Shown here: in pieces, positions 11,646-30,845 of the stretch
How the letters are laid out: each line of letters starts with the position of its first letter
How positions within the stretch are numbered: the stretch's first letter is position 1
UHGV virus genome: UHGV-1487493
Direction: 5' to 3' (one strand)
DNA: 36,569 bases
From: a virus
Made by a program: the position numbers and the translations under genes
The notes under the pieces: model-generated
Database searches by the model: none
Told to the model about the DNA's origin: nothing
Seen by the model: the letters and a program-made list of their open reading frames with translations, nothing else

Positions 11646-13167
11646 TCTTATTCACTTCAGGCCTTCGTGGTTCTGGCTTATCATTTGTTTCTTCCTTAAT
11701 ACGTTTTAGTTCGACATCGGGATTGACACCCGTTACTGTAGACAATATTTCAAATAGTGTTTCATCTGAAACTTGTCCAACTAATTGACTAGCTAATGAA
11801 ACAATCTCGTTATCTGATTTAGGAACATTCGCAGTAAATATAATATTCGTATTATTAATATCATTGTAAGCTGTTGAATCGTTCCCTTTTATTTGCCAAA
11901 TATTAATAGCTAGGCGCAATCGTCTCATCAAACCTTTTTCAAATAAGCGCTGTTGCATAACCCGCCGATTATCCGCAGCCATTAACTTGTATTTCATACT
12001 CTCACCTGATTGTGTACCACTGAAATTGGCATCCAATGTATCTGGTGTAAAAGTAAATCGTAAAATATCATTAACCAATCTTTTCTTATAAGTCTCTGCA
12101 CCTTCTGAGTCATATTCTTTTATGAGATATTTTGCATCAGGTTCTGATCCGTTTGGATTTGGATTATCATCTAAAATCATTATTCGTGCTTTTTTGAAAG
12201 CTAAAGAAACAGCTAACCGTGAATTAGGAACAATATTACCATCTTCATCTAAGTCATTTTGAGCAGTCCCTGTGTATGGATTTCCTTTGATAAGCAAAAT
12301 AGCGTCCATTGTGTCCTGCTGATAATTAGCTAACTCAGATTGAGACAAATCATAAGCATCAATTGAATCTAAAACAGGTTCGTATGCACCTGTACGGTCT
12401 TCATTATTTGCGAATTCATTAATAGGTACGCCATTAAACGCATAATCTTCAAAGTCTAATAATGTCAATCCCTTTTTATTCTGGTTGTCATTGACATAGA
12501 TGTATAACATGTCAGATGTATAAACGTTTATAAAATCCTTACGCACCCCATCGCCATAATCTATTGAATAATAATAAACACCAAATAAAGAATTACTGTC
12601 AGTCGTATCATCATATACAATGAATGTCTGCTCTGGGTTTAATTTAACTAGTTTTACAAACGCTTGTTCATCTTGTAAAGCAATTGTTTCCAACTCGTAG
12701 GCTCTGCCATAGATTGACAAATCGGTTTTGATAAGTACGTTGTGATAGGCTTCGTTGTTTTGCTTATTGAAGTCATCGATTTTTTCTTGCAGTTCATCAT
12801 TTTCATTTTTGTACTGGACCGGCTGTCCCAACATATAGCCTTGCTCAAAAATAGTGATATATCTAGCAAAATCACTTGCTATTCTATTGTCGGCAGCGTA
12901 TTCATCAGTTTTTGGAGGACGATATTTGATGTTATTATCTGCTAAGTAATAGCGTTTAAGCTCTTTTAAACGTGGCACTTGTTCAGCAAGATGTCGATTA
13001 ACAAATCTTTTTAGTTGAGTAATCCATGTTTCACTATCAAATTCTAGGCTTTCAAAATCTTCCTGTGCCATTCTAAAAACCGCATTCGCATTTTTATGAT
13101 ACCTGTGATTTCTTAAAAACGTTACTTCATTCTTTTTATTCACTTTTTCATCCCTTTCTTTATCCAA
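11584..13167 (-). CDS. Portal protein
   Basis: 527 aa immediately downstream of (and overlapping) the large terminase; acidic C-terminal tail. Confidence 0.85.
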   Translation of the reverse strand: MDKERDEKVNKKNEVTFLRNHRYHKNANAVFRMAQEDFESLEFDSETWITQLKRFVNRHLAEQVPRLKELKRYYLADNNIKYRPPKTDEYAADNRIASDFARYITIFEQGYMLGQPVQYKNENDELQEKIDDFNKQNNEAYHNVLIKTDLSIYGRAYELETIALQDEQAFVKLVKLNPEQTFIVYDDTTDSNSLFGVYYYSIDYGDGVRKDFINVYTSDMLYIYVNDNQNKKGLTLLDFEDYAFNGVPINEFANNEDRTGAYEPVLDSIDAYDLSQSELANYQQDTMDAILLIKGNPYTGTAQNDLDEDGNIVPNSRLAVSLAFKKARIMILDDNPNPNGSEPDAKYLIKEYDSEGAETYKKRLVNDILRFTFTPDTLDANFSGTQSGESMKYKLMAADNRRVMQQRLFEKGLMRRLRLAINIWQIKGNDSTAYNDINNTNIIFTANVPKSDNEIVSLASQLVGQVSDETLFEILSTVTGVNPDVELKRIKEETNDKPEPRRPEVNKNEMGNDDDEREAAKGINEDE

Positions 13168-14452
13168 AGAAGAACTTGGCAGCGTCCATACGTTCCTCTA
13201 ATGATTGTGGATTCTTCAAGCTTAAGGTCCTAAGGAGACTGGCCGCGCTGTCTGGTGCATCGTCATGTTCTGCATTTTCTGTATAGTCCAAAATTTCGGC
13301 AATGTACTCTTTATCTGTATCTTCTAACCAAATAATCAAGTGCCAGTACTTACGCAAATAAGTAGATATTTTAATAAATTTATTCATAGATTCATGATAT
13401 TCAGTAACAAACTGACCGCACTCACGTAAATTCTTAGCTAAGTACCCTTTGTCTCCGTTCGTTTCTGTGTGGAAAGTTCCTGCCTGGTAGTGTTGATGCA
13501 ATCGCAAAATTTCAGGCAAGCAATCATCCACATGTTTCTGCCACTTCCTACCATATCCAATAATTGTTCCATCTTTTTGTTCTTTGAAGATGGTTAAGGC
13601 TGTGCTGTCATCGCCACCATAAGCCGCGTCGATGTGTGCTACACCGTTATAAATAAGATTAATACTGTCGGTATAGGTTGGTGCAGTAAATAGCGATTCA
13701 CTGTCAGCAATATGTTTTAGCTCATAGTTTGCCGCAAATAATGATGGTGTCATTGCTTGTTGCAATGCCTGACGTTGTTCTTTGTCAATTAATCCTGTTT
13801 CGTAACAATCGAATTTCTTGACGTTAGGCATTTTAGAGATTGCGTCTTCTTTGTGCCATGGTGTACCTGTGTTAATAAAACGACCACCGCGATTTTTAAC
13901 GTTCTGCAATTCTTGATACTGAAGTTTCGTTCTCTCTCGTTCAGCTCGACTGACTCGGTCTTTAATGTTAACAATGTCATCAGTAATAACGATGTCCGCA
14001 TGTTTACCAGTCAGAGAAGCGTATATTCCCATACCGAGTAATTGAGAGGTTCCTCGGCTAGATGTTTTTAAGTTGGTATCTATTTCCGTGGTGGTCTCTT
14101 TCAAAAGCACTAATTCAACGCCATATAATGCAAATACAAGCGTTTTAAAGTATTTGCTAGATAAAACCTTAGCCACTTGTAAAATAATCTCTACGACGTC
14201 AGTATCAGTCTTACGTAAGAAGATAATGTTTTTATTTGGAAAAAGAACCATCAACAATGCAATTGCAATCGCCAAGGTAGTTGTTTTAAATGAGCCACGA
14301 TGAGCCAATAACGTTTGATCGTCTTTCTCAAACAAAAAAGACTTTAACCAATCATTGTGCAATTCTCCTAAATCGTTAAACCCCACTAAATTTCCAAAAA
14401 TTACCGGGTTCGTTTTGATTAGGTTCAAATATTTTCGCTTTTTAGGGCTCAT
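13160..14452 (-). CDS. terL: Terminase large subunit
   Basis: 430 aa; N-terminal ATPase region (..AHRGSFKTT..); position between TerS and portal. Confidence 0.9.
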   Translation of the reverse strand: MSPKKRKYLNLIKTNPVIFGNLVGFNDLGELHNDWLKSFLFEKDDQTLLAHRGSFKTTTLAIAIALLMVLFPNKNIIFLRKTDTDVVEIILQVAKVLSSKYFKTLVFALYGVELVLLKETTTEIDTNLKTSSRGTSQLLGMGIYASLTGKHADIVITDDIVNIKDRVSRAERERTKLQYQELQNVKNRGGRFINTGTPWHKEDAISKMPNVKKFDCYETGLIDKEQRQALQQAMTPSLFAANYELKHIADSESLFTAPTYTDSINLIYNGVAHIDAAYGGDDSTALTIFKEQKDGTIIGYGRKWQKHVDDCLPEILRLHQHYQAGTFHTETNGDKGYLAKNLRECGQFVTEYHESMNKFIKISTYLRKYWHLIIWLEDTDKEYIAEILDYTENAEHDDAPDSAASLLRTLSLKNPQSLEERMDAAKFFFG

Positions 14453-14898
14453 GTAGAATCATCCTCGAAAAACTGCTCGATTTCGACTGCTGCATCGGAA
14501 ATATTAAGCGATCCTGAAACCTCGGTTTCTCTTCGATCTCTCCACTCATCAGGCTTTCTGTTCTTAAGCCAGAAAATTGCGGATGTAGGGTTGGGCGCCA
14601 CTTGTTTCGTTACTTTTTTGGTTACTTCCATGCCCGCTTCTGTTAATTCTTTTGTAACTTCGGTGTATTCATAACCCACCGCACTTTTAAACAGTGCATT
14701 TTCAACTTGACGATCTACAACTTCTTTTCCTCTTTTGAGGGCGGAAGAAATGGAAGAAAACCTCTTTTTCCAATCGGTAAATGTCCGTTCGGATACTCCA
14801 ACATTTTGTGCGATTTGCTTATCGACGAGGCCATCTCGTGCCCACCCTTCGATTTTAATTAACCCTTCGTCAGTCAGCCACTCTGTGTACTTTGCCAT
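14449..14898 (-). CDS. terS: Terminase small subunit (P27 / Terminase_2 type, HTH)
   Basis: 149 aa with HTH and conserved ..PNPTSAIFWLKNRKPDEWRDRRE.. region; strong RBS AGGAGGTGAGG; overlaps terL start. Confidence 0.8.
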   Translation of the reverse strand: MAKYTEWLTDEGLIKIEGWARDGLVDKQIAQNVGVSERTFTDWKKRFSSISSALKRGKEVVDRQVENALFKSAVGYEYTEVTKELTEAGMEVTKKVTKQVAPNPTSAIFWLKNRKPDEWRDRRETEVSGSLNISDAAVEIEQFFEDDST

Positions 14899-15018
14899 GA
14901 CCTCACCTCCTATGTAATTTTATGTATAAAAAGAGACACCCAGCAAGTGGATGCCTCTCGTGAAGGATAGAAACATCTATTGACGTTTCCTAATTTATTT
15001 AAGTAGCTATGCTACCTA

Positions 15019-15091
15019 TTGGCGTGACAGGATTCGAACCCGCATCTTATCTCACACGTAATCAGTTGCATTACCACAATGCTACACGCCA
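15019..15091 (-). pseudogene. tRNA-like element: perfect acceptor and T arms, non-canonical anticodon arm (degenerate tRNA or remnant)
   Basis: Minus strand TGGCGTG-TA-GCAT..ATGC-..-GCGGGTTCGAATCCTGT-CACGCCA-A: 7-bp acceptor stem, D arm, GGTTCGAATCC T-loop; the 17-nt anticodon segment cannot form a 5-bp stem. Confidence 0.4.
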
Positions 15092-15337
15092 AACCAGAAG
15101 GAGCGACCTTCTAGCAATTGCTAATAAATCAAATTAACCTTTACACACTCTCGTCAGAATGTTTTCCCATCAGGACGTAGCTTTCGCAGACTTTCACGGC
15201 TAAAATGATTATGTCACTGGCAAGGATTTGCACCTTGCATGATTAGATTTATCCGATGGGCCAAAGCCCTACATACGAACTTATACGTTGTTCCAATGTC
15301 TAATCTCACGTACGAGCGTCTACCTATTCCGCCACAG

Positions 15338-15590
15338 TGACTAAACTTAACTCTCGCAAACCTGTAGAAAAAAGAGAGAGGAAATTCACCTCACTTCTTT
15401 AGTTTTATAATTGGTGGTTTGCGAGAGAATCTAAATGAGATCACAAGTGACTAAACGAAGAAAGTAGATTTTTTTACTTCCTTGTAATCTCAAATCAAAA
15501 AAATAAGTAGGCAATCGTTCCGTTAATGTATTTGTGTAAGTGTGTCGCATTTCTTATTTTTTTGACACTATCATAATAACCCGTTTAGAA
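15338..15590. repeat. Repeat block A (homologous to block B at 16026-16185); contains a GTGACTAAAC direct repeat flanking a 12-bp inverted repeat
   Basis: GTGACTAAAC at 15338-15347 and 15448-15457; ACTCTCGCAAACC (15351-15363) / GGTTTGCGAGAG (15417-15428) inverted repeat; segments GCAAAC-TGTAGAAAAAAGAG..ATTCACCTCACTTC and CATTTCTT..TTTTGA..ATAATA shared with block B. Confidence 0.6.
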
Positions 15591-15698
15591 GGTATATGAA
15601 GTGTAGATAAAGTGTATAAAAAAGGTATAAAAAGTGTAGCAAATGGCTACTTAAAAGCAACCAATTCCAGTGCCGAAGCAAATTGAACACTGCTTATT

Positions 15699-15962
15699 TT
15701 ATATTAATTTACGAAGTGTTTTACCTTCATCATTTAAGAGCCATACTGCAACAATTTTAAAATCTTCGTAATATGGCAGGTTAATTGCAGTTGTTTGCTC
15801 CTTGCCAAATGTAATGACAATCGGGTTACTATTGTTAAAAACTTTAACTGCGTCACTATCACAAGAAGTCCCTGAAACCCCTCCGATATAGTCCACTAAA
15901 AGTTTCGCTGCTTCTTTACCTTCTAATTCTTTTTTATTAAACTTATCAATTTGCAATAACAT
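15699..15962 (-). CDS. Hypothetical protein (87 aa)
   Basis: ATG at 15962 with an AAAGGAAG RBS; located between repeat blocks B and A. Confidence 0.4.
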   Translation of the reverse strand: MLLQIDKFNKKELEGKEAAKLLVDYIGGVSGTSCDSDAVKVFNNSNPIVITFGKEQTTAINLPYYEDFKIVAVWLLNDEGKTLRKLI

Positions 15963-16025
15963 ATAAATCTTCCTTTCTGTCTGTCTTTTTTTGCATATGC
16001 TAGCAATCGCCAAATATATCCCTTG

Positions 16026-16185
16026 CAAACTTGTAGAAAAAAGAGGAGGTTATTCACCTCACTTCATTTTATTGAGAACGTATGTCTGCAAGTGACCATC
16101 GAAAGACAAAGTGAACGGTGACTAAACGAGAAAGTGTGTACTGTGTCCATTTCTTTGACTTTTGATACTACCATAATACAACGGA
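16026..16185. repeat. Repeat block B (homologous to block A)
   Basis: GCAAACTTGTAGAAAAAAGAGGAGG..ATTCACCTCACTTC; GTGACTAAACGAGAAAGT at 16117; CATTTCTTTGACTTTTGATACTACCATAATA. Confidence 0.6.
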
Positions 16186-16223
16186 TTTCGAGTTAAAAAC
16201 CCTAAATAATCCCTAAAAAAACC

Positions 16224-16715
16224 CTAATTTTTTTGAACTATCAAATTTTCGTAATGGTAGGCTTCCGCAAATTCAATTAACGCATTGTCTTTCAGCTTTT
16301 CAATATTTTTAATGCTATAGCTTATTTCTTCCACTTGGCCAAACTCGTTTTCACGATATACTTTTATTGTTCTACTCAACTTAGCCATGCTGTATGGATT
16401 CGGTACACAATATGAATAGTATAATATTTCTCTCGAGACATCAGGCAACGATTTTAACGTATGCTCTATCGCTCTGACTTGCTCTCTACGTTGTCTAGCT
16501 GCCTCTATTGATAACTTAGACGTGTCTCTAAATAAATGAACCATACTTTCCTCAGCATTATTTCTGTTACTATGGTGTCGCGGCATATCAGATAATATAG
16601 GAGATTGCAAATGTACTTTTACACCACTCATTCGTTGTAGGCTTCGACAATTTTTTAATAATCTACGAACTTTATCTTTTGTTTTTTTGTAATCTATTTC
16701 TGGTACCAACGTCAT
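16224..16715 (-). CDS. arpU: ArpU-family phage late transcriptional regulator
   Basis: 163 aa; position upstream of the packaging genes; sequence characteristic of the ArpU family (..SDMPRHHSNRNNAEESMV..). Confidence 0.75.
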   Translation of the reverse strand: MTLVPEIDYKKTKDKVRRLLKNCRSLQRMSGVKVHLQSPILSDMPRHHSNRNNAEESMVHLFRDTSKLSIEAARQRREQVRAIEHTLKSLPDVSREILYYSYCVPNPYSMAKLSRTIKVYRENEFGQVEEISYSIKNIEKLKDNALIEFAEAYHYENLIVQKN

Positions 16716-16768
16716 AGCCTTGACTCCTCCTATATGGTATAATATTTTATGTGAAACATACCATCATT

Positions 16769-16800
16769 AGGAGTTACTTAGCGGAAACTGAGTAACTCCT
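16769..16800. other. Hairpin 1 (10-bp stem, loop TAGCGGAAACTG)
   Basis: AGGAGTTACT / AGTAACTCCT inverted repeat. Confidence 0.6.
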
Positions 16801-16895
16801 TTAATTTATGCAAATATACAAATGAAAGCTTATTCTTTGCTATTTAACCATTACTTATGATATTAATTATATTAAGAATAATATTCCAATAGTTA

Positions 16896-16921
16896 TTCAC
16901 TTCTCAGCCAGTCGGCGGAAA
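16896..16921. other. Hairpin 2 (9-bp stem, loop GCGGAAAA)
   Basis: AGCCAGTCG / CGACTGGCT inverted repeat. Confidence 0.6.
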
Positions 16922-16968
16922 ACGACTGGCTATTTATCTGGTAGAATATTCATCACTAATATGGTTTT

Positions 16969-16997
16969 AGTCAACCAGTGGTCGGTTGGCTTTTTTA
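16969..16997 (+). terminator. Rho-independent terminator-like hairpin on plus strand
   Basis: AGTCAACC-AGTGGTC-GGTTGGCT followed by TTTTTT. Confidence 0.5.
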
Positions 16998-17067
16998 TAC
17001 TTGATTTTTTATAATGGGTTTGGTATAAAAATACTATAAAAAATAAACTTAATATTATTTCTTACAG

Positions 17068-17098
17068 AACTACCTAGCGGAAACTAGGTAGTTTTTTT
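17068..17098 (+). terminator. Hairpin 3 (10-bp stem, loop CGGAAA) followed by T-run; plus-strand terminator-like
   Basis: AACTACCTAG-CGGAAA-CTAGGTAGTT-TTTTT. Confidence 0.55.
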
Positions 17099-17111
17099 AT
17101 ACTATCATTTA

Positions 17112-17312
17112 TTATTCTTCCAATGCCCATCCCATTAATTTACTCATTTCAAATACTACATTTCGTCTTACTCCAGTTGAAATACCTAGATAATTAAATT
17201 TTAAAACATCCCATTCTAAATCAGTTGTAACTGTTTCAACATGCCTAACATCTTCAAACTTCATTGTTTCACCAGTCGGTAGCCATATGATCAAACTTTT
17301 TGATTTTTCCAT
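17112..17312 (-). CDS. Hypothetical protein (66 aa)
   Basis: ORF at the end of the early operon. Confidence 0.4.
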   Translation of the reverse strand: MEKSKSLIIWLPTGETMKFEDVRHVETVTTDLEWDVLKFNYLGISTGVRRNVVFEMSKLMGWALEE

Positions 17313-17315
17313 TTA

Positions 17316-17888
17316 TTATCCCTCCACCTTCACAGCAAACGGCCAATAGCGCTCATCAATTGCTTTGATTACTGATTCAGTAAGTTTATATGCTGAATCG
17401 TGCCAATTTGTTAGTTCTTCATACTCAACAAGTCTAGCATCAGTTCTACCACTAAAAAGTTGCACTAAATATTTATGGTCAATAACTACTTTATACAACT
17501 GTTCTTTCTCGACTTCGTAGCCGTTATCAATGGCGCTCATTAGTTTTACTTTATTTTTTGGAACTGTAAGCCAGCTCTCTATTTTTTCAGTTAAAAACGA
17601 GTATTCTTCATCATAGTACCGCTCTAACTGTCTGCCGATGAACGTCATGAAAACAGCACCAGAATTTAACTTAACATTACTGATTTGACCTCTTAAACCA
17701 TCAAGCCAATCTGCCACAAATTTCTCTTCATGTGAAAATATGACTTTTCCCTGTACTTTGAGTTCTTTTATGACCTCAATTGCTGCATTTACTCCATCGT
17801 CATAACCTCTTGACCATTCATCTTCTGCATCGCAGCCTCCGATATCATAGAGCGCTTGAATTAAATCTTCTTTTTCTTGTTTATTCAT
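17316..17888 (-). CDS. DUF1642-like phage protein
   Basis: GGGAGGGG RBS before the ATG at 17888 (internal Met of the listed ORF); phage early-region family. Confidence 0.5.
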   Translation of the reverse strand: MNKQEKEDLIQALYDIGGCDAEDEWSRGYDDGVNAAIEVIKELKVQGKVIFSHEEKFVADWLDGLRGQISNVKLNSGAVFMTFIGRQLERYYDEEYSFLTEKIESWLTVPKNKVKLMSAIDNGYEVEKEQLYKVVIDHKYLVQLFSGRTDARLVEYEELTNWHDSAYKLTESVIKAIDERYWPFAVKVEG

Positions 17889-18141
17889 CGCTGCCCCTCC
17901 CAAAAAAGTCAACATTTCCTAGGATTTCTAATTCTCCATCTGGGTAAACATCTAACCAATCATGAGCACCAATAAAATTATTAAAGGCATTCAAACCTTT
18001 TGTTTTATGATGGTGATTTACTCCAAAACCGACTAATAAAATTTCACCTCGTAACGTTCGAACAACGTCATGATATTTAATTACTTTACCGTTCTTGTCT
18101 TTTACCTCTTCAACACAATTTTTGTAATTTTCATAACTCAT
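17881..18141 (-). CDS. Hypothetical protein (86 aa)
   Basis: ORF with overlapping stop/start coupling to neighbours. Confidence 0.4.
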   Translation of the reverse strand: MSYENYKNCVEEVKDKNGKVIKYHDVVRTLRGEILLVGFGVNHHHKTKGLNAFNNFIGAHDWLDVYPDGELEILGNVDFFGRGSDE

Positions 18142-18299
18142 TCCGCTTCCTCCTCAATACATTTAAACAAGCCCTCTGACTTCTTTAATATTTCTCTTTC
18201 CCTTTTATATACATTTTCTTCAAAGAAAGCTTTTGCTTCTTCGTTATTACTTATGTCAATTTCAATATATTCATCTTTGAAAGCTTCTTTAAAGCTCAT
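18138..18299 (-). CDS. Hypothetical acidic small protein (53 aa)
   Basis: Not in the ORF track (<60 aa); GGAGGTCGCAGA-ATG RBS; ATGA overlap with the downstream gene; fills a gap between minus-strand genes. Confidence 0.35.
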   Translation of the reverse strand: MSFKEAFKDEYIEIDISNNEEAKAFFEENVYKREREILKKSEGLFKCIEEEAE

Positions 18300-18712
18300 T
18301 CTGCGACCTCCAATAGCTCTGGGTTCTCGTGAATATTTCCGAGTATTTCTAAAGAACTAGTTCCATCAAAAGTATTAGAAACATCAATAAAATCATAGTT
18401 GTCATCTGGTTCTATTCCATCGATAAAAAATTGATAACAGTCTCTTTTAACGATACCTAGGTAGCTATATTCTCCATCTCGATACTGAACAATATCACCC
18501 TCAAAAATTTCAACGCCGTTCTTGTCTTTCAAGCCTGTTGATTGCATGAGGATCACATCTTTAAATTCTCGTGTCAACGTATGCCTATTCTCATGATCTC
18601 CATTATCAGCCTCAAGCCAAACTGTTTTTTTCTCAAAGTCAATTTGATTAACTTTCATCATTTTTTTATATTTCTTATCCCACGCTCTAAACTTTGGAAT
18701 CATCTTCTTCAC
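18296..18712 (-). CDS. YopX-family phage protein
   Basis: N-terminal ..KFRAWDKKYKKM.. pattern typical of YopX-like proteins. Confidence 0.55.
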   Translation of the reverse strand: MKKMIPKFRAWDKKYKKMMKVNQIDFEKKTVWLEADNGDHENRHTLTREFKDVILMQSTGLKDKNGVEIFEGDIVQYRDGEYSYLGIVKRDCYQFFIDGIEPDDNYDFIDVSNTFDGTSSLEILGNIHENPELLEVAE

Positions 18713-18746
18713 TCACTTTCTAAAATAGTGACAGCTGTTCTCCAGT

Positions 18747-19511
18747 TCATATAAATAGCCCCATTGGGATATTTGACAACATTTTTTCCTGCGCAACTTC
18801 GTACATCTCTTTCTTTATTTCAAATCCATAAGCATTTCTATTGAGTTCTGCCGCAGCTCTAAGCGTAGAGCCACTACCAGCGCATGGATCTATTACAACA
18901 TCCCCATAATCTGTGAAAATTTCAATTAACCGTTTAATAACGGGTACCGGTTTTTGTGTCGGATGTATTTTTGGGTAGCTGTTATCCGTTTCCCATTCAA
19001 ACCAATTTAGAACCATACGGCCGTCGTTATTGAATTTGGGAAGTTTTTCTCTGTAAAGAACTAGTGCATATTCTGTAGCCCCTACGATCCTCATATTTGC
19101 TTTTAGTACTTGAGGACTGGACTTCTTAATAAAAACTAGTGGAATGTGATTTTTAAAGCCGTACCGTTTACCATAATCAATCACCATTTGAAGCTGTTGA
19201 AAAGCGCAAAATACAATCATAGCTGGCGCTTTTCCAACTTCTTTAGGTTCTTTCTTTAACATTTTTGAGCAAAAATGCATAAACTCTGATATTCTAAAAT
19301 TCTCATCGGTGTCAAAAAAGCTTTTATTCGCTTTATCCGATTCTCCATTTTCAATTTTTCCACCCTCATACCATGCAGAACTGGATGCATAAGCATTTTT
19401 ACCTAAGTTGTACGGTATGTCTGCAATAACTAATTGTGCTTTCGGTATGCCGTATCGTTTATAATTTTGAAAATGATCGTTAAATAATTGTATTTTCGGT
19501 TCTCTCTGCAT
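18747..19511 (-). CDS. DNA methyltransferase, N6A/N4C beta-class (orphan; no cognate endonuclease seen)
   Basis: Motif IV DIPY (ADIPYNLG) near the N-terminus and motif I VIDPCAGSGST near the C-terminus. Confidence 0.8.
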   Translation of the reverse strand: MQREPKIQLFNDHFQNYKRYGIPKAQLVIADIPYNLGKNAYASSSAWYEGGKIENGESDKANKSFFDTDENFRISEFMHFCSKMLKKEPKEVGKAPAMIVFCAFQQLQMVIDYGKRYGFKNHIPLVFIKKSSPQVLKANMRIVGATEYALVLYREKLPKFNNDGRMVLNWFEWETDNSYPKIHPTQKPVPVIKRLIEIFTDYGDVVIDPCAGSGSTLRAAAELNRNAYGFEIKKEMYEVAQEKMLSNIPMGLFI

Positions 19512-30771: not shown

Positions 30772-30845
30772 TGGACCATACAGGACTCGAACCTATGACC
30801 TAACCGTTATGAGCGATTGGCTCTAACCAACTGAGCTAATGGTCC
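30772..30845 (-). tRNA. tRNA with CAT anticodon (Met elongator or Ile2/lysidine type)
   Basis: Minus strand GGACCAT-TA-GCTC-AGTTGGTTA-GAGC-C-AATCG-CTCATAA-CGGTT-AGGTC-ATAGG-TTCGAGT-CCTGT-ATGGTCC-A; G1-C72 paired so not an initiator; Ile-like D arm. Confidence 0.85.

Follow-up and report, generated by a model that had tools for sequence, protein, structure and literature searches.

A probable mosaic control and small-RNA region heading a phage late operon, with ArpU-type leader cassettes and a predicted tRNA-like RNA gene that lacks an anticodon arm

What occupies the 1.1 kb between the late activator gene arpU and the small terminase gene terS in the virus genome UHGV-1487493? The whole stretch of phage DNA analysed, here called the window, is 36,569 nucleotides (nt) long; the region examined covers positions 15092-16223, and its functional reading is on the minus strand, where all features of the window given below lie. 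A sequence-only reading had taken the region for a non-coding late leader with two duplicated blocks, A and B, proposed to be ArpU-dependent promoters or leaders, and with a symmetry reminiscent of a packaging site. Every feature listed in that reading is present, some with coordinates off by one, but the term non-coding fits only in part, as the region holds a predicted 87-amino acid (aa) gene and a predicted transfer RNA (tRNA)-like RNA gene. We consider it likely that this stretch is a mosaic that heads the late operon on the minus strand and combines control elements with small RNAs.

Positions 15100-15340 had been noted as G+C-richer than the rest of the genome, which the composition bears out (43.2% versus 34.5% for the window). 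On its predicted anatomy this G+C-rich stretch is a tRNA-like RNA gene of 130 nt (15212-15341) with the layout GTCACTG-TG-GCGGAATAGGTAGACGC-(77-nt insert)-GCAAGG-TGCAAAT-CCTTGC-CAGTGAC-A. The strands GTCACTG and CAGTGAC form a 7-base pair (bp) acceptor stem; U8, G9 and a tRNA-Leu-type D arm with G18 and G19 follow on the 5' side, and the 3' side consists of a 6-bp T stem (GCAAGG/CCTTGC) with the T loop TGCAAAT and of a discriminator A, CCA not being encoded. The place of the anticodon arm is taken by a structured insert of 77 nt, without a 5-bp stem and 7-nt U33 loop. Unannotated DNA of four Schiekvirus myophages, which are lytic and have genomes of 150 kb, matches the gene at 98-99% identity, and in the two of these phages that were examined closely the element lies inside a tRNA array, starting 3 nt after a genuine phage transfer-messenger RNA (tmRNA). 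These tmRNAs (L001 3137-3484 and L003 253-603) score 131-141 bits, and the tag encoded in L001 is AKNEELLAVA.

ARAGORN called neither of the two copies given to it; on the window element it made no call with introns allowed, with a lowered threshold or in tmRNA mode. No family among the 4,227 of Rfam 15 matched it at E-values up to 10, and none matched a 61-nt member of the family described below (locus L060). The Rfam scans covered the window at gathering thresholds and, at permissive E-values, positions 14800-16800, the L060 member and 23 related loci; they yielded tRNA, tmRNA, ROOL and mcrA matches and weak rliG, RT-3 and FMN matches only. With our covariance model R1, the window element is recovered as two half matches of 28.0 and 27.6 bits (E about 3e-5 each), while the rest of the window scores at most 11.7 bits; a single spanning match is absent because the 77-nt insert splits the element into two halves. 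Considered as a possible antisense RNA, the insert finds no complementary stretch of at least 11 nt in the rest of the window, and a blastn search against 50,697 phage records found no match to it beyond the same element.

Two other identities were considered and rejected. A tRNA-Leu(GAG) gene interrupted by an intron could be drawn with CGUAC and GUAUG around a GAG loop; this pattern is absent in the other members of the family, and their inserts are too short and too diverse for self-splicing. A remnant of an attP or other integration site was rejected because both tRNA halves are present, the inserts range from 8 to 232 nt, any integrase is distant and the element also occurs in lytic phages.

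The family was collected from viral contigs by a T-arm pattern scan and, independently, by a D-arm scan. It comprises 127 distinct elements whose inserts range from 8 to 232 nt with a median of 75. Members are defined as N7-UG-GCGGAAUAGGUAGACGC-insert-AU-(6-bp T stem with a UGCAAAU loop)-N7'-discriminator, N7 and N7' being complementary, and the window element has every feature of this definition. The predicted anatomy is that of a class II tRNA-Leu without an anticodon arm, of which a purine-rich linker of about 10 nt is left, and with an expanded variable arm. The D arm is identical to that of genuine phage tRNA-Leu genes, which were caught by the same scan.

Comparative analysis shows that the predicted secondary structure of this RNA is conserved. 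Across 59 core sequences, 98.4% of the cells are paired, versus 35-44% when the strands are slid, and covarying pairs comprise all seven of the acceptor, two of the D stem and the two outer pairs of the T stem. When the D arm was found without using the acceptor, 61 of 66 elements had at least six of seven acceptor pairs in register, compared with 0-1 in slid registers and 11 at +3. The sixth pair of the T stem, which extends the acceptor/T stack to 13 bp, covaries (G-C, A-U, C-G and G.U). Of the 56 elements located by the D arm alone, 37 have the T loop UGCAAAU, with UGCGAAU, UUCAAAU and others as variants; A14, A15, G18 and G19 of the D loop and the U before the T stem are near-invariant, consistent with tertiary pairing of A15 and U48. 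By contrast, the sequence of the acceptor stem varies freely across the family, and more than half of the members have U-A or A-U at pair 1-72. The insert always ends in A-U and is closed by a 6-bp helix in 52% of cases (12% in shuffles), with the 5' strand of that helix 6-16 nt past the D stem. The discriminator is A in 61% and is followed by U in 61%, and CCA is encoded in 3 of the 127. Members with short inserts, including the mini forms described below, score 44-72 bits with the covariance model, whereas true tRNA-Leu genes score 20-24 bits.

The insert is exchanged as a whole between otherwise alike members. Enterococcus phages carry the same two ends around wholly different middles of 39 to about 150 nt, and closely related Schiekvirus phages carry unrelated inserts in the same scaffold. 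In phages of Listeria, Brochothrix and Paenibacillus, the D and T arms are unchanged, and the acceptor strands differ yet remain complementary. A sample of bacterial genomes contained true elements in a Heyndrickxia genome and in Clostridia metagenome-assembled genomes. Among 92 Enterococcus loci with the leader described below, about 10 carry full elements, about 27 carry a mini form and 49 carry none, and most carry a tRNA of varying identity. The mini form, found in phiFL2A-type phages, is 52-54 nt long and has neither the cargo arm nor the GG of the D loop.

Such a record bears on whether the element could simply be a decaying tRNA-Leu pseudogene or a recombination scar without function, which we regard as very unlikely. 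Descent from tRNA-Leu, the position of the T arm at a mosaic breakpoint, the truncated mini forms and the lack of the element in half of the related Enterococcus loci would all fit this idea. It does not account well for 127 distinct copies across phages of several host genera and in bacterial genomes, with three helices preserved by compensatory changes and with invariant loops, nor for a perfect 7-bp acceptor kept through dozens of sequences, which is unlike a pseudogene; moreover, the element is retained within the tRNA arrays of strictly lytic 150-kb phages.

All tRNA and tmRNA genes next to an element share its strand, some of them only 2-11 nt away. Recurrent protein-coding neighbours are late activators of the sigma-70 region 4 type and the ArpU type upstream, and RRXRR-HNH, TerS and TerL genes downstream; clustering of 1,003 flanking open reading frames (ORFs) in search of a dedicated protein partner gave late activators, HNH, TerS and TerL only. 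The GenBank phage records examined have no annotation over the element, and a full-text literature search found no description of the tRNA-like family and no paper pairing ArpU with a tRNA-like element. The family appears to be widespread in phages of Firmicutes and undescribed.

Several individual loci deserve mention. In L113 (6641-7219), a ROOL RNA (263 bits) ends 10 nt before a 285-nt family member, with a tRNA about 55 nt later, and a related 277-nt member follows a type-A leader in an Enterococcus prophage (L368). The insert of a 202-nt member in L094 contains a complete tRNA-Lys, 64 nt into the member (ARAGORN; coordinates 2565-2637 of the extract), and the inserts of L038, L071 and L390 contain T-arm-like GGTTCGA(A/T)TCC hairpins. 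In Listeria phage LP-114 (L010), an rliG-like sequence (633-858; 29 bits, below the gathering threshold of 55) lies just upstream of the tRNA-like element, and an mcrA RNA motif (1020-1070; 72.5 bits) lies about 90 nt downstream of it.

What might this RNA do? In the six-step scheme that we propose for the region, RNase P, RNase Z and the CCA-adding enzyme would, as the fifth step, excise and finish the tRNA-like RNA like the neighbouring tRNA. Indirect indications are the common strand and, in places, the closeness (2-11 nt) of adjacent tRNAs, and the rarity of an encoded CCA together with the U after the discriminator fits RNase Z processing. The tRNA body would then serve as a handle for processing and stability and as portable homology for an exchangeable cargo arm, which would carry the function. 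More broadly, and only tentatively, as we would stop short of calling it probable, the family may be a large class of hitherto undescribed RNAs of phages, transcribed with the late operon or within tRNA arrays, in which tRNA-Leu bodies lacking the anticodon arm and bearing an exchangeable arm act as scaffolded effectors or as decoys against host systems that target tRNA.

Three observations weigh against this reading. The D and T loops are near-invariant while the acceptor varies, which fits a specific partner of the tRNA elbow better than a mere stability handle. About 27 of the 92 Enterococcus loci keep a mini form without the cargo arm, so that the cargo is dispensable or the mini forms are relics. 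The presence of a discriminator A in only 61% argues against universal charging with leucine. In an alternative reading, the RNA would act via its conserved tRNA-Leu elbow, as a decoy or competitor for a tRNA-binding host or defence factor (e.g. an anticodon nuclease that targets class II tRNAs, leucyl-tRNA synthetase (LeuRS) or a processing enzyme), and the variable arm would be free to drift or be under diversifying selection. Besides the near-invariant D loop and U before the T stem, the mostly TGCAAAT T loop and the free variation of the acceptor, this alternative draws on the existence of forms nearly without an insert (61 nt in L060 and the 52-54-nt minis) and on the D arm shared with genuine phage tRNA-Leu genes. 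It also gains from the fact that bacterial LeuRS ignores the anticodon, identity being set by A73 together with D-loop and tertiary features. We nevertheless judge it rather unlikely: in 39% the discriminator is a base other than A, G18 and G19 are missing from the mini forms, and the conserved protein genes nearby are late activators and packaging genes only. Furthermore, whole inserts are swapped between identical scaffolds, and closing helices are in excess (52% versus 12%); both suggest that the arm matters. In short, the near-invariant loops favour action through the elbow, and the swapping of whole inserts between identical scaffolds favours an exchangeable cargo, which is the reading we tentatively prefer.

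Known RNAs resemble the family in part. With class II tRNA-Leu it shares the D arm, the 7-bp acceptor, G18/G19, an A15/U48-like pair, a long arm beside the T stem and, in 61%, A73; it differs in lacking an anticodon arm, in having six rather than five T-stem pairs and a G at the usual position of U55, and in being missed by the Rfam tRNA model and ARAGORN in the copies tested. Engineered "minimalist" tRNA-Leu without anticodon and variable arms is reportedly still charged by LeuRS. The order of parts in tmRNA is likewise similar, with an acceptor strand, a D-loop region, a large insert at the place of the anticodon arm, a T arm and the other acceptor strand. In contrast to tmRNA, the family is derived from tRNA-Leu and not tRNA-Ala, has a real D stem and includes 8-nt inserts, which are too short for a tag frame; the window element matches no tmRNA model (ARAGORN -m and Rfam), whereas the neighbouring tmRNA in Schiekvirus scores 131 bits.

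Non-decoding RNAs with tRNA-like acceptor, D and T modules, associated with phages or tRNAs, include YrlA, a bacterial Y RNA-like tRNA mimic, and the T4 stable RNAs species 1 and 2. YrlA has its free ends on the anticodon side and a closed acceptor, the reverse of the tRNA-like family; no Rfam model matched the family, and the T4 RNAs are set beside the family by description alone. The large phage-associated ROOL and GOLLD RNAs occur in prophages next to tRNAs and are probably co-transcribed with them (Weinberg et al. 2017, PMC5737381). They share the genomic niche of the tRNA-like family and have no structural relation to it, the latter being far smaller and tRNA-shaped. The closest parallel in appearance is artificial: in the synthetic "tRNA scaffold" of Ponchon and Dardel, the anticodon arm is reportedly replaced by an arbitrary structured RNA, and the tRNA body is said to provide processing and stability. 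The natural family looks alike, and phages may follow the same logic; if so, they would have arrived at the biotechnologists' trick for stable RNA expression. Codon usage and escape from tRNA-cleaving defences are the usual explanations for tRNA genes in phages, and a common, non-decoding, tRNA-shaped RNA fits neither of them. The family, which annotation pipelines miss, is a defined and testable object: its scaffold is conserved, its arm can be swapped, and its host genera are known, with therapeutic Enterococcus phages among its carriers.

How would the tRNA-like RNA come to be transcribed? The late activator gene arpU (16224-16715), which matches the NCBIfam model TIGR01637 (phage_arpU) with 69.8 bits against a cut-off of 43.1, borders the region on its 5' side. 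Three TTAGGG boxes with 11-bp spacing lie at its end (16200-16227; CCCTAA on the plus strand at 16200, 16211 and 16222), the first of them overlapping the arpU stop codon. The boxes are followed by two -10-like elements, TATTAT and TAGTAT, separated by 2 nt (16164-16180), with no -35 hexamer; this double motif is kept in all three leader types described below and lies 29 nt after the last box, both here and in Enterococcus phage phiFL2A. In phiFL2A, three 7-nt repeats (TTGGCGG) directly after arpU are needed for ArpU binding and terS expression, as reporter fusions and gel shifts established (Quiles-Puchalt et al. 2013, PMC3753634). The window boxes match these repeats in place, number and spacing, and across loci the sequence of the box varies with the C-terminus of ArpU. 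The same study found that activators of the Ltr family do not cross-activate non-cognate repeats and that specificity is set by the C-terminus (PMC3753634).

Block B is thus identified, from its layout, as a putative ArpU-dependent late promoter and leader. By homology to the phiFL2A experiments, ArpU would bind the three 11-bp-phased TTAGGG boxes at its own stop codon and activate the -35-less promoter, switching on late transcription as the first step of the scheme, with a start placed near the -10-like elements. The transcript would open, as the second step, with a structured leader of about 145 nt that consists of helix P1, the GUUUAGUCAC motif and a long-range helix P2 of 12-14 bp bracketing a weak intrinsic terminator, P3. 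In the window, leader B spans 16018-16166: the P1 strands lie at 16153-16166 and 16098-16111, the motif CTCGTTTAGTCAC at 16118-16130, the P2 strands at 16084-16096 and 16018-16030, and the terminator-like hairpin P3 at 16046-16060 with a U tract at 16035-16045 (predicted free energy -8.6 kcal/mol). Read-through transcripts would express the inserted 87-aa gene as the third step.

Block B is 99.6% identical to phage 1_EfsPF36 and 80-91% identical to phiFL1A, phiFL2A and phiEf11; over 16283-16019 its identity to the arpU-terS region of phiFL2A is 80%. The window and phiFL2A share arpU, three short direct repeats immediately after it, a long intergenic region and terS, and they are 100% identical from 15241 through terS. 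They differ in the box, which is TTGGCGG in phiFL2A and TTAGGG in the window, and in that the window alone has a second, heterologous cassette and an inserted gene. The phiFL2A paper notes that the intergenic region contains a terminator and describes no leader structure, no terminators downstream of the boxes and no tRNA-like gene (PMC3753634). A weak Rfam match to the RT-3 RNA (16219-16344; 24.4 bits against a gathering threshold of 40.5) over the arpU 3' end and the boxes recurs in the near-identical 1_EfsPF36 and is probably due to chance.

The sequence-only reading had suggested aligning related phages to see whether the repeated blocks are conserved. Loci were collected by searching for the conserved 3' end of the block (TTTTTCTACARGTTTGC), and the cassette is kept in at least 92 usable Enterococcus-phage loci, which fall into three sequence types with one P1-P2-P3 architecture. 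All types share the double -10-like motif TAWWWT NN TAGTRT and the conserved motif CUCGUUUAGUCAC; the strands of the 5' hairpin P1 differ between types with their complementarity kept; and in every type P2, of 12-14 bp, encloses P3, a short hairpin with a U tract. Minimum free energy (MFE) folds reproduce this layout for each type, with z-scores of -6.5, -5.0 and -6.1. The z-score of leader B in the window is -2.1, which indicates a somewhat degraded copy. Over 20 distinct strand combinations, P2 is 89.6% paired, versus 21-43% with the 3' strand slid, and one of its pairs is G.U in half of the variants; as this would be C.A on the opposite strand, it fits an RNA made from the transcribed strand. 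No Rfam family covers the Enterococcus leader in any of the scans listed above.

Comparative analysis thus shows a conserved predicted secondary structure for the leader. We would like to note that covariation in P2 provides moderate evidence for this: it is modest in extent, with three pairs changed on both sides, and 22 of 500 shuffles contain as many changed cells as were observed. P2 mismatches in recombinant loci weigh in the same direction.

Block A had been described as a duplicate of block B, and three colinear segments are indeed shared: 15353-15400 with 16022-16068 (87.5%, E 4.5e-13), 15447-15465 with 16118-16135 (95%, E 7.6e-4) and 15533-15578 with 16135-16178 (80%, E 1.5e-6). Both blocks are, as proposed, ArpU-type cassettes, each lying upstream of a transcription unit in the minus-strand sense; cassette A is heterologous, however, and no plain duplicate. 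It begins with a 42-nt remnant of the 3' end of a second arpU allele (15647-15688), which translates to VQFASALELVAFK followed by a stop. An identical C-terminus is found in locus L257, where a 172-aa ArpU-family ORF (TIGR01637, 48.4 bits) is followed by the same boxes and leader A as in the window. The boxes of cassette A (15592-15646) are four to five 11-bp-phased repeats of the ACTTTTTATAC type with spacings of 11, 11 and 11, and the same repeats follow the arpU-A stop codon in L257.

Leader A, together with its -10-like elements, spans 15351-15580. The elements TATTAT/TAGTGT lie at 15564-15580 and the P1 strands at 15553-15565 and 15495-15507; the predicted fold adds a hairpin with strands at 15481-15491 and 15437-15447. 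The leader motif TTCGTTTAGTCAC occupies 15447-15459. The P2 strands, located by folding and by a repeat search, are at 15416-15427 and 15351-15362, and P3 is at 15378-15392 with its U tract at 15366-15377 (a weak terminator, -8.1 kcal/mol). The MFE of leader A has a z-score of -5.0 against mononucleotide shuffles. Matching between cassette A and phiFL2A is confined to the 3' part of the leader (15400-15353, 90%).

From this composition, cassette A would be a late-promoter cassette from a phage with another arpU allele, recombined into the region with loss of its activator gene. Recombination at the conserved leader ends probably placed it there, which is the fourth step of the scheme. The C-terminus of the window ArpU is unlike that of arpU-A, and the boxes differ completely (TTAGGG versus TATAC-type). 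No cognate activator for the cassette A boxes was seen among the ORFs listed for 13000-19000, and a second arpU was not sought elsewhere in the window.

It could still be that both cassettes are live ArpU-dependent promoters, B driving the 87-aa gene and A driving the tRNA-like RNA, tRNA-Arg and terS. Both have phased boxes, the same double -10-like motif and a full-length leader; the double arrangement recurs in L132, L284 and the contig OR846670 and is hence stable; and A could be shielded from upstream transcription by a weak hairpin with a U run that follows the arpU-A remnant. We find this doubtful given that the box sequences are wholly different and that Ltr activators do not cross-activate non-cognate repeats (PMC3753634); in addition, the cognate arpU-A has been cut down to 42 nt, and the two ArpU C-termini are dissimilar. 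The boxes of cassette A are probably unserved by the window ArpU, and the cassette would most likely act as a second leader and terminator rather than as a second promoter.

Does the symmetry of block A mark a packaging site instead? The sequence-only reading had pointed to direct repeats of GTGACTAAAC flanking a 12-bp inverted repeat as reminiscent of a cos or terminase-recognition site. The repeats are real, although the coordinates given for them, and for the inverted repeat, were off by one: GTGACTAAAC occurs at 15337, 15447 and 16118 (three copies against a shuffle mean of 0.10, and none of 100 shuffles reached three), and the inverted repeat is perfect, with arms at 15351-15362 and 15416-15427 and 53 nt between them. 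Another explanation is far more likely. The inverted repeat consists of the strands of the leader helix that bracket the terminator hairpin in three divergent leader types. Leaders A and B hold one GTGACTAAAC copy each, at positions homologous to each other, and the remaining copy is made up of the 5' acceptor strand and flank of the tRNA-like gene (TAGTCAC, also in Schiekvirus) and three chance bases.

A cos or pac site recognised by terminase at GTGACTAAAC and the inverted repeat is consequently not supported, and we consider it extremely unlikely. The cos sites of many siphophages lie just upstream of terS, the 12-bp repeat is perfect, the phased 11-bp repeats nearby could bend DNA, and the mcrA motif, the nature of which is uncertain, occurs in the same neighbourhood in Listeria phage LP-114. 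Set against this, the same inverted repeat recurs in cassette B, at a distance of 670 bp, and across at least 92 loci, always around a leader hairpin and U tract, and half of the P2 variants have the G.U pair. The inverted repeat is part of a leader cassette that recombines independently of the downstream DNA; 1_EfsPF36 and phiFL2A share terS and terL with the window at 99.8-100% yet have no block A. One GTGACTAAAC copy is the acceptor strand of the tRNA-like gene, no HNH endonuclease gene adjoins terS in the window, and the portal is of the SPP1 type. According to a review, the phiFL phage group packages host DNA (generalized transduction). Public phage records start at arbitrary or terS-based positions. 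Generalized transduction and an SPP1-type portal point to headful packaging rather than cos, and pac usually lies in or near terS; a pac site may lie somewhere nearby.

The sequence on either side of the tRNA-like gene and leader B indicates how the region was assembled. Phage 1_EfsPF36 matches the window at 99.6-99.8% up to 16019 and again from 15237 on, with 242 nt between these points versus 781 nt in the window; phiFL2A is identical to the window from 15241, the start of the T arm of the tRNA-like gene; and contig OR846670 has B, the 87-aa ORF and A together at 97.5% identity (16178-15347). Judging from these alignments, the mosaic joints evidently lie at the conserved leader end and in the T arm of the tRNA-like gene, so that conserved RNA modules would serve as recombination linkers, shuffling cargo at the head of the late operon. 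Between the leader and the mini tRNA-like element of phiFL2A (L007 665-878), IME197, phiFL3A and 1_EfsPF36 lie about 215 nt of conserved non-coding sequence without an Rfam match; at this place the window has the 87-aa ORF, cassette A and the full 5' part of the tRNA-like gene.

The inserted gene cassette (15699-16005) consists of the 87-aa ORF (15699-15962), a ribosome-binding site (RBS; 15969-15976) and two overlapping palindromes at 15993-16005. The palindromes, GCATATGC (15993) and TGCTAGCA (15998), were found close to where the sequence-only reading had placed them, about 31-44 bp upstream of the start at 15962. The ORF is 45% identical over its full length to the Efquatrovirus protein phiSHEF4_58, the gene of which lies between terL and the portal gene, and we take this homologue to indicate that the ORF is a real gene; it matches no Pfam or NCBIfam family. 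The palindrome-bearing sequence upstream of it sits behind type-B and type-A leaders in other loci and may be a promoter or operator of the inserted gene.

Transcription that reaches terS from the boxes must also pass terminators. Downstream of the tRNA-like gene lie a spacer, tRNA-Arg and a strong terminator, which would end the unit before terS in the sixth and last step of the scheme. This intrinsic terminator, between tRNA-Arg and the terS RBS (14926-14959), has a 12-bp stem (14931-14959) followed by UUUUUAU, with a free energy of -16.9 kcal/mol and a z-score of -3.95; none of 200 shuffles was as stable. Of 43 distinct related loci, 36 have a terminator of -10 kcal/mol or stronger 85-151 nt beyond the tRNA, versus none in the shuffles. 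Between the boxes and terS there are thus two weak terminators in the leaders (-8.6 and -8.1 kcal/mol) and one strong one (-16.9 kcal/mol). A sigma-70 promoter for terS downstream of the strong terminator was considered and rejected, as the sole candidate, TTGCTG-N18-TAAAAT, has 3 of 6 positions in the first hexamer and was unreported by the scan. Expression of terS in phiFL2A depends on boxes that lie about 790 nt before it; the reporter was expressed with ArpU plus the boxes, and no transcription read through from upstream when ArpU was absent (PMC3753634).

With the late genes lying beyond two weak terminators and one strong one, transcription started by ArpU would probably resist termination, by analogy with lambda Q at PR' or with HK022 put. 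Two points count against this. The leader terminators are weak and may matter little, and partial read-through of the terminators without antitermination is a simpler alternative that could equally account for the reporter data from phiFL2A. The full-text literature search found no statement that Ltr proteins act by antitermination, and the string "antiterminat" occurs 0 times in PMC3753634. It is possible, with the same reserve as for the proposed RNA class and separately from it, that the ArpU cassette is a Q- or put-like antitermination device.

Antitermination systems of this kind include lambda PR'-qut-6S RNA-tR' with Q, the HK022 put RNA and conAn of Gram-positive conjugative elements. 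Shared features are a promoter-proximal element, a terminator within about 150 nt, a late operon past more terminators and a regulator that binds promoter DNA. The likeness is one of layout, and ArpU differs in having been described as an activator only. The Ltr/ArpU/RinA superfamily governs packaging and gene transfer in Gram-positive pathogens; to judge by the order of box, promoter, structured leader with a weak terminator, small RNAs and strong terminator before terS, the "activator" model for it may not tell the full story.

As to the remaining features, the gene order on the minus strand is arpU, the 87-aa ORF, tRNA-Arg(ACG), an ORF for a helix-turn-helix (HTH)-type small terminase (terS, 14449-14898, which flanks the region), terL and the SPP1-type portal gene. 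The spacer between the tRNA-like gene and tRNA-Arg (15093-15211; 119 nt, 41.7% G+C) ends in a 7-bp hairpin, AGAAGG-TCGC-TCCTTCT (15096-15112). It is kept in phiFL2A (100%), VEsP-1 (94%) and IME197 (87%), which offers little diversity for structure testing, and its sole Rfam match is a chance-level one to FMN (13.3 bits). The tRNA-Arg(ACG) gene itself (15018-15092; found by ARAGORN, and 42.8 bits with the Rfam tRNA model) abuts the 3' edge of the region; its anticodon region is one base longer than the model, and the ARAGORN drawing has a G.G mismatch in the anticodon stem. Related phages have tRNA-Arg(TCG) or a tRNA for Glu, Lys, Trp, Asn or Ser at this spot. A second tRNA gene in the window, tRNA-Met(CAT), lies at 30772-30845 on the minus strand (63 bits).

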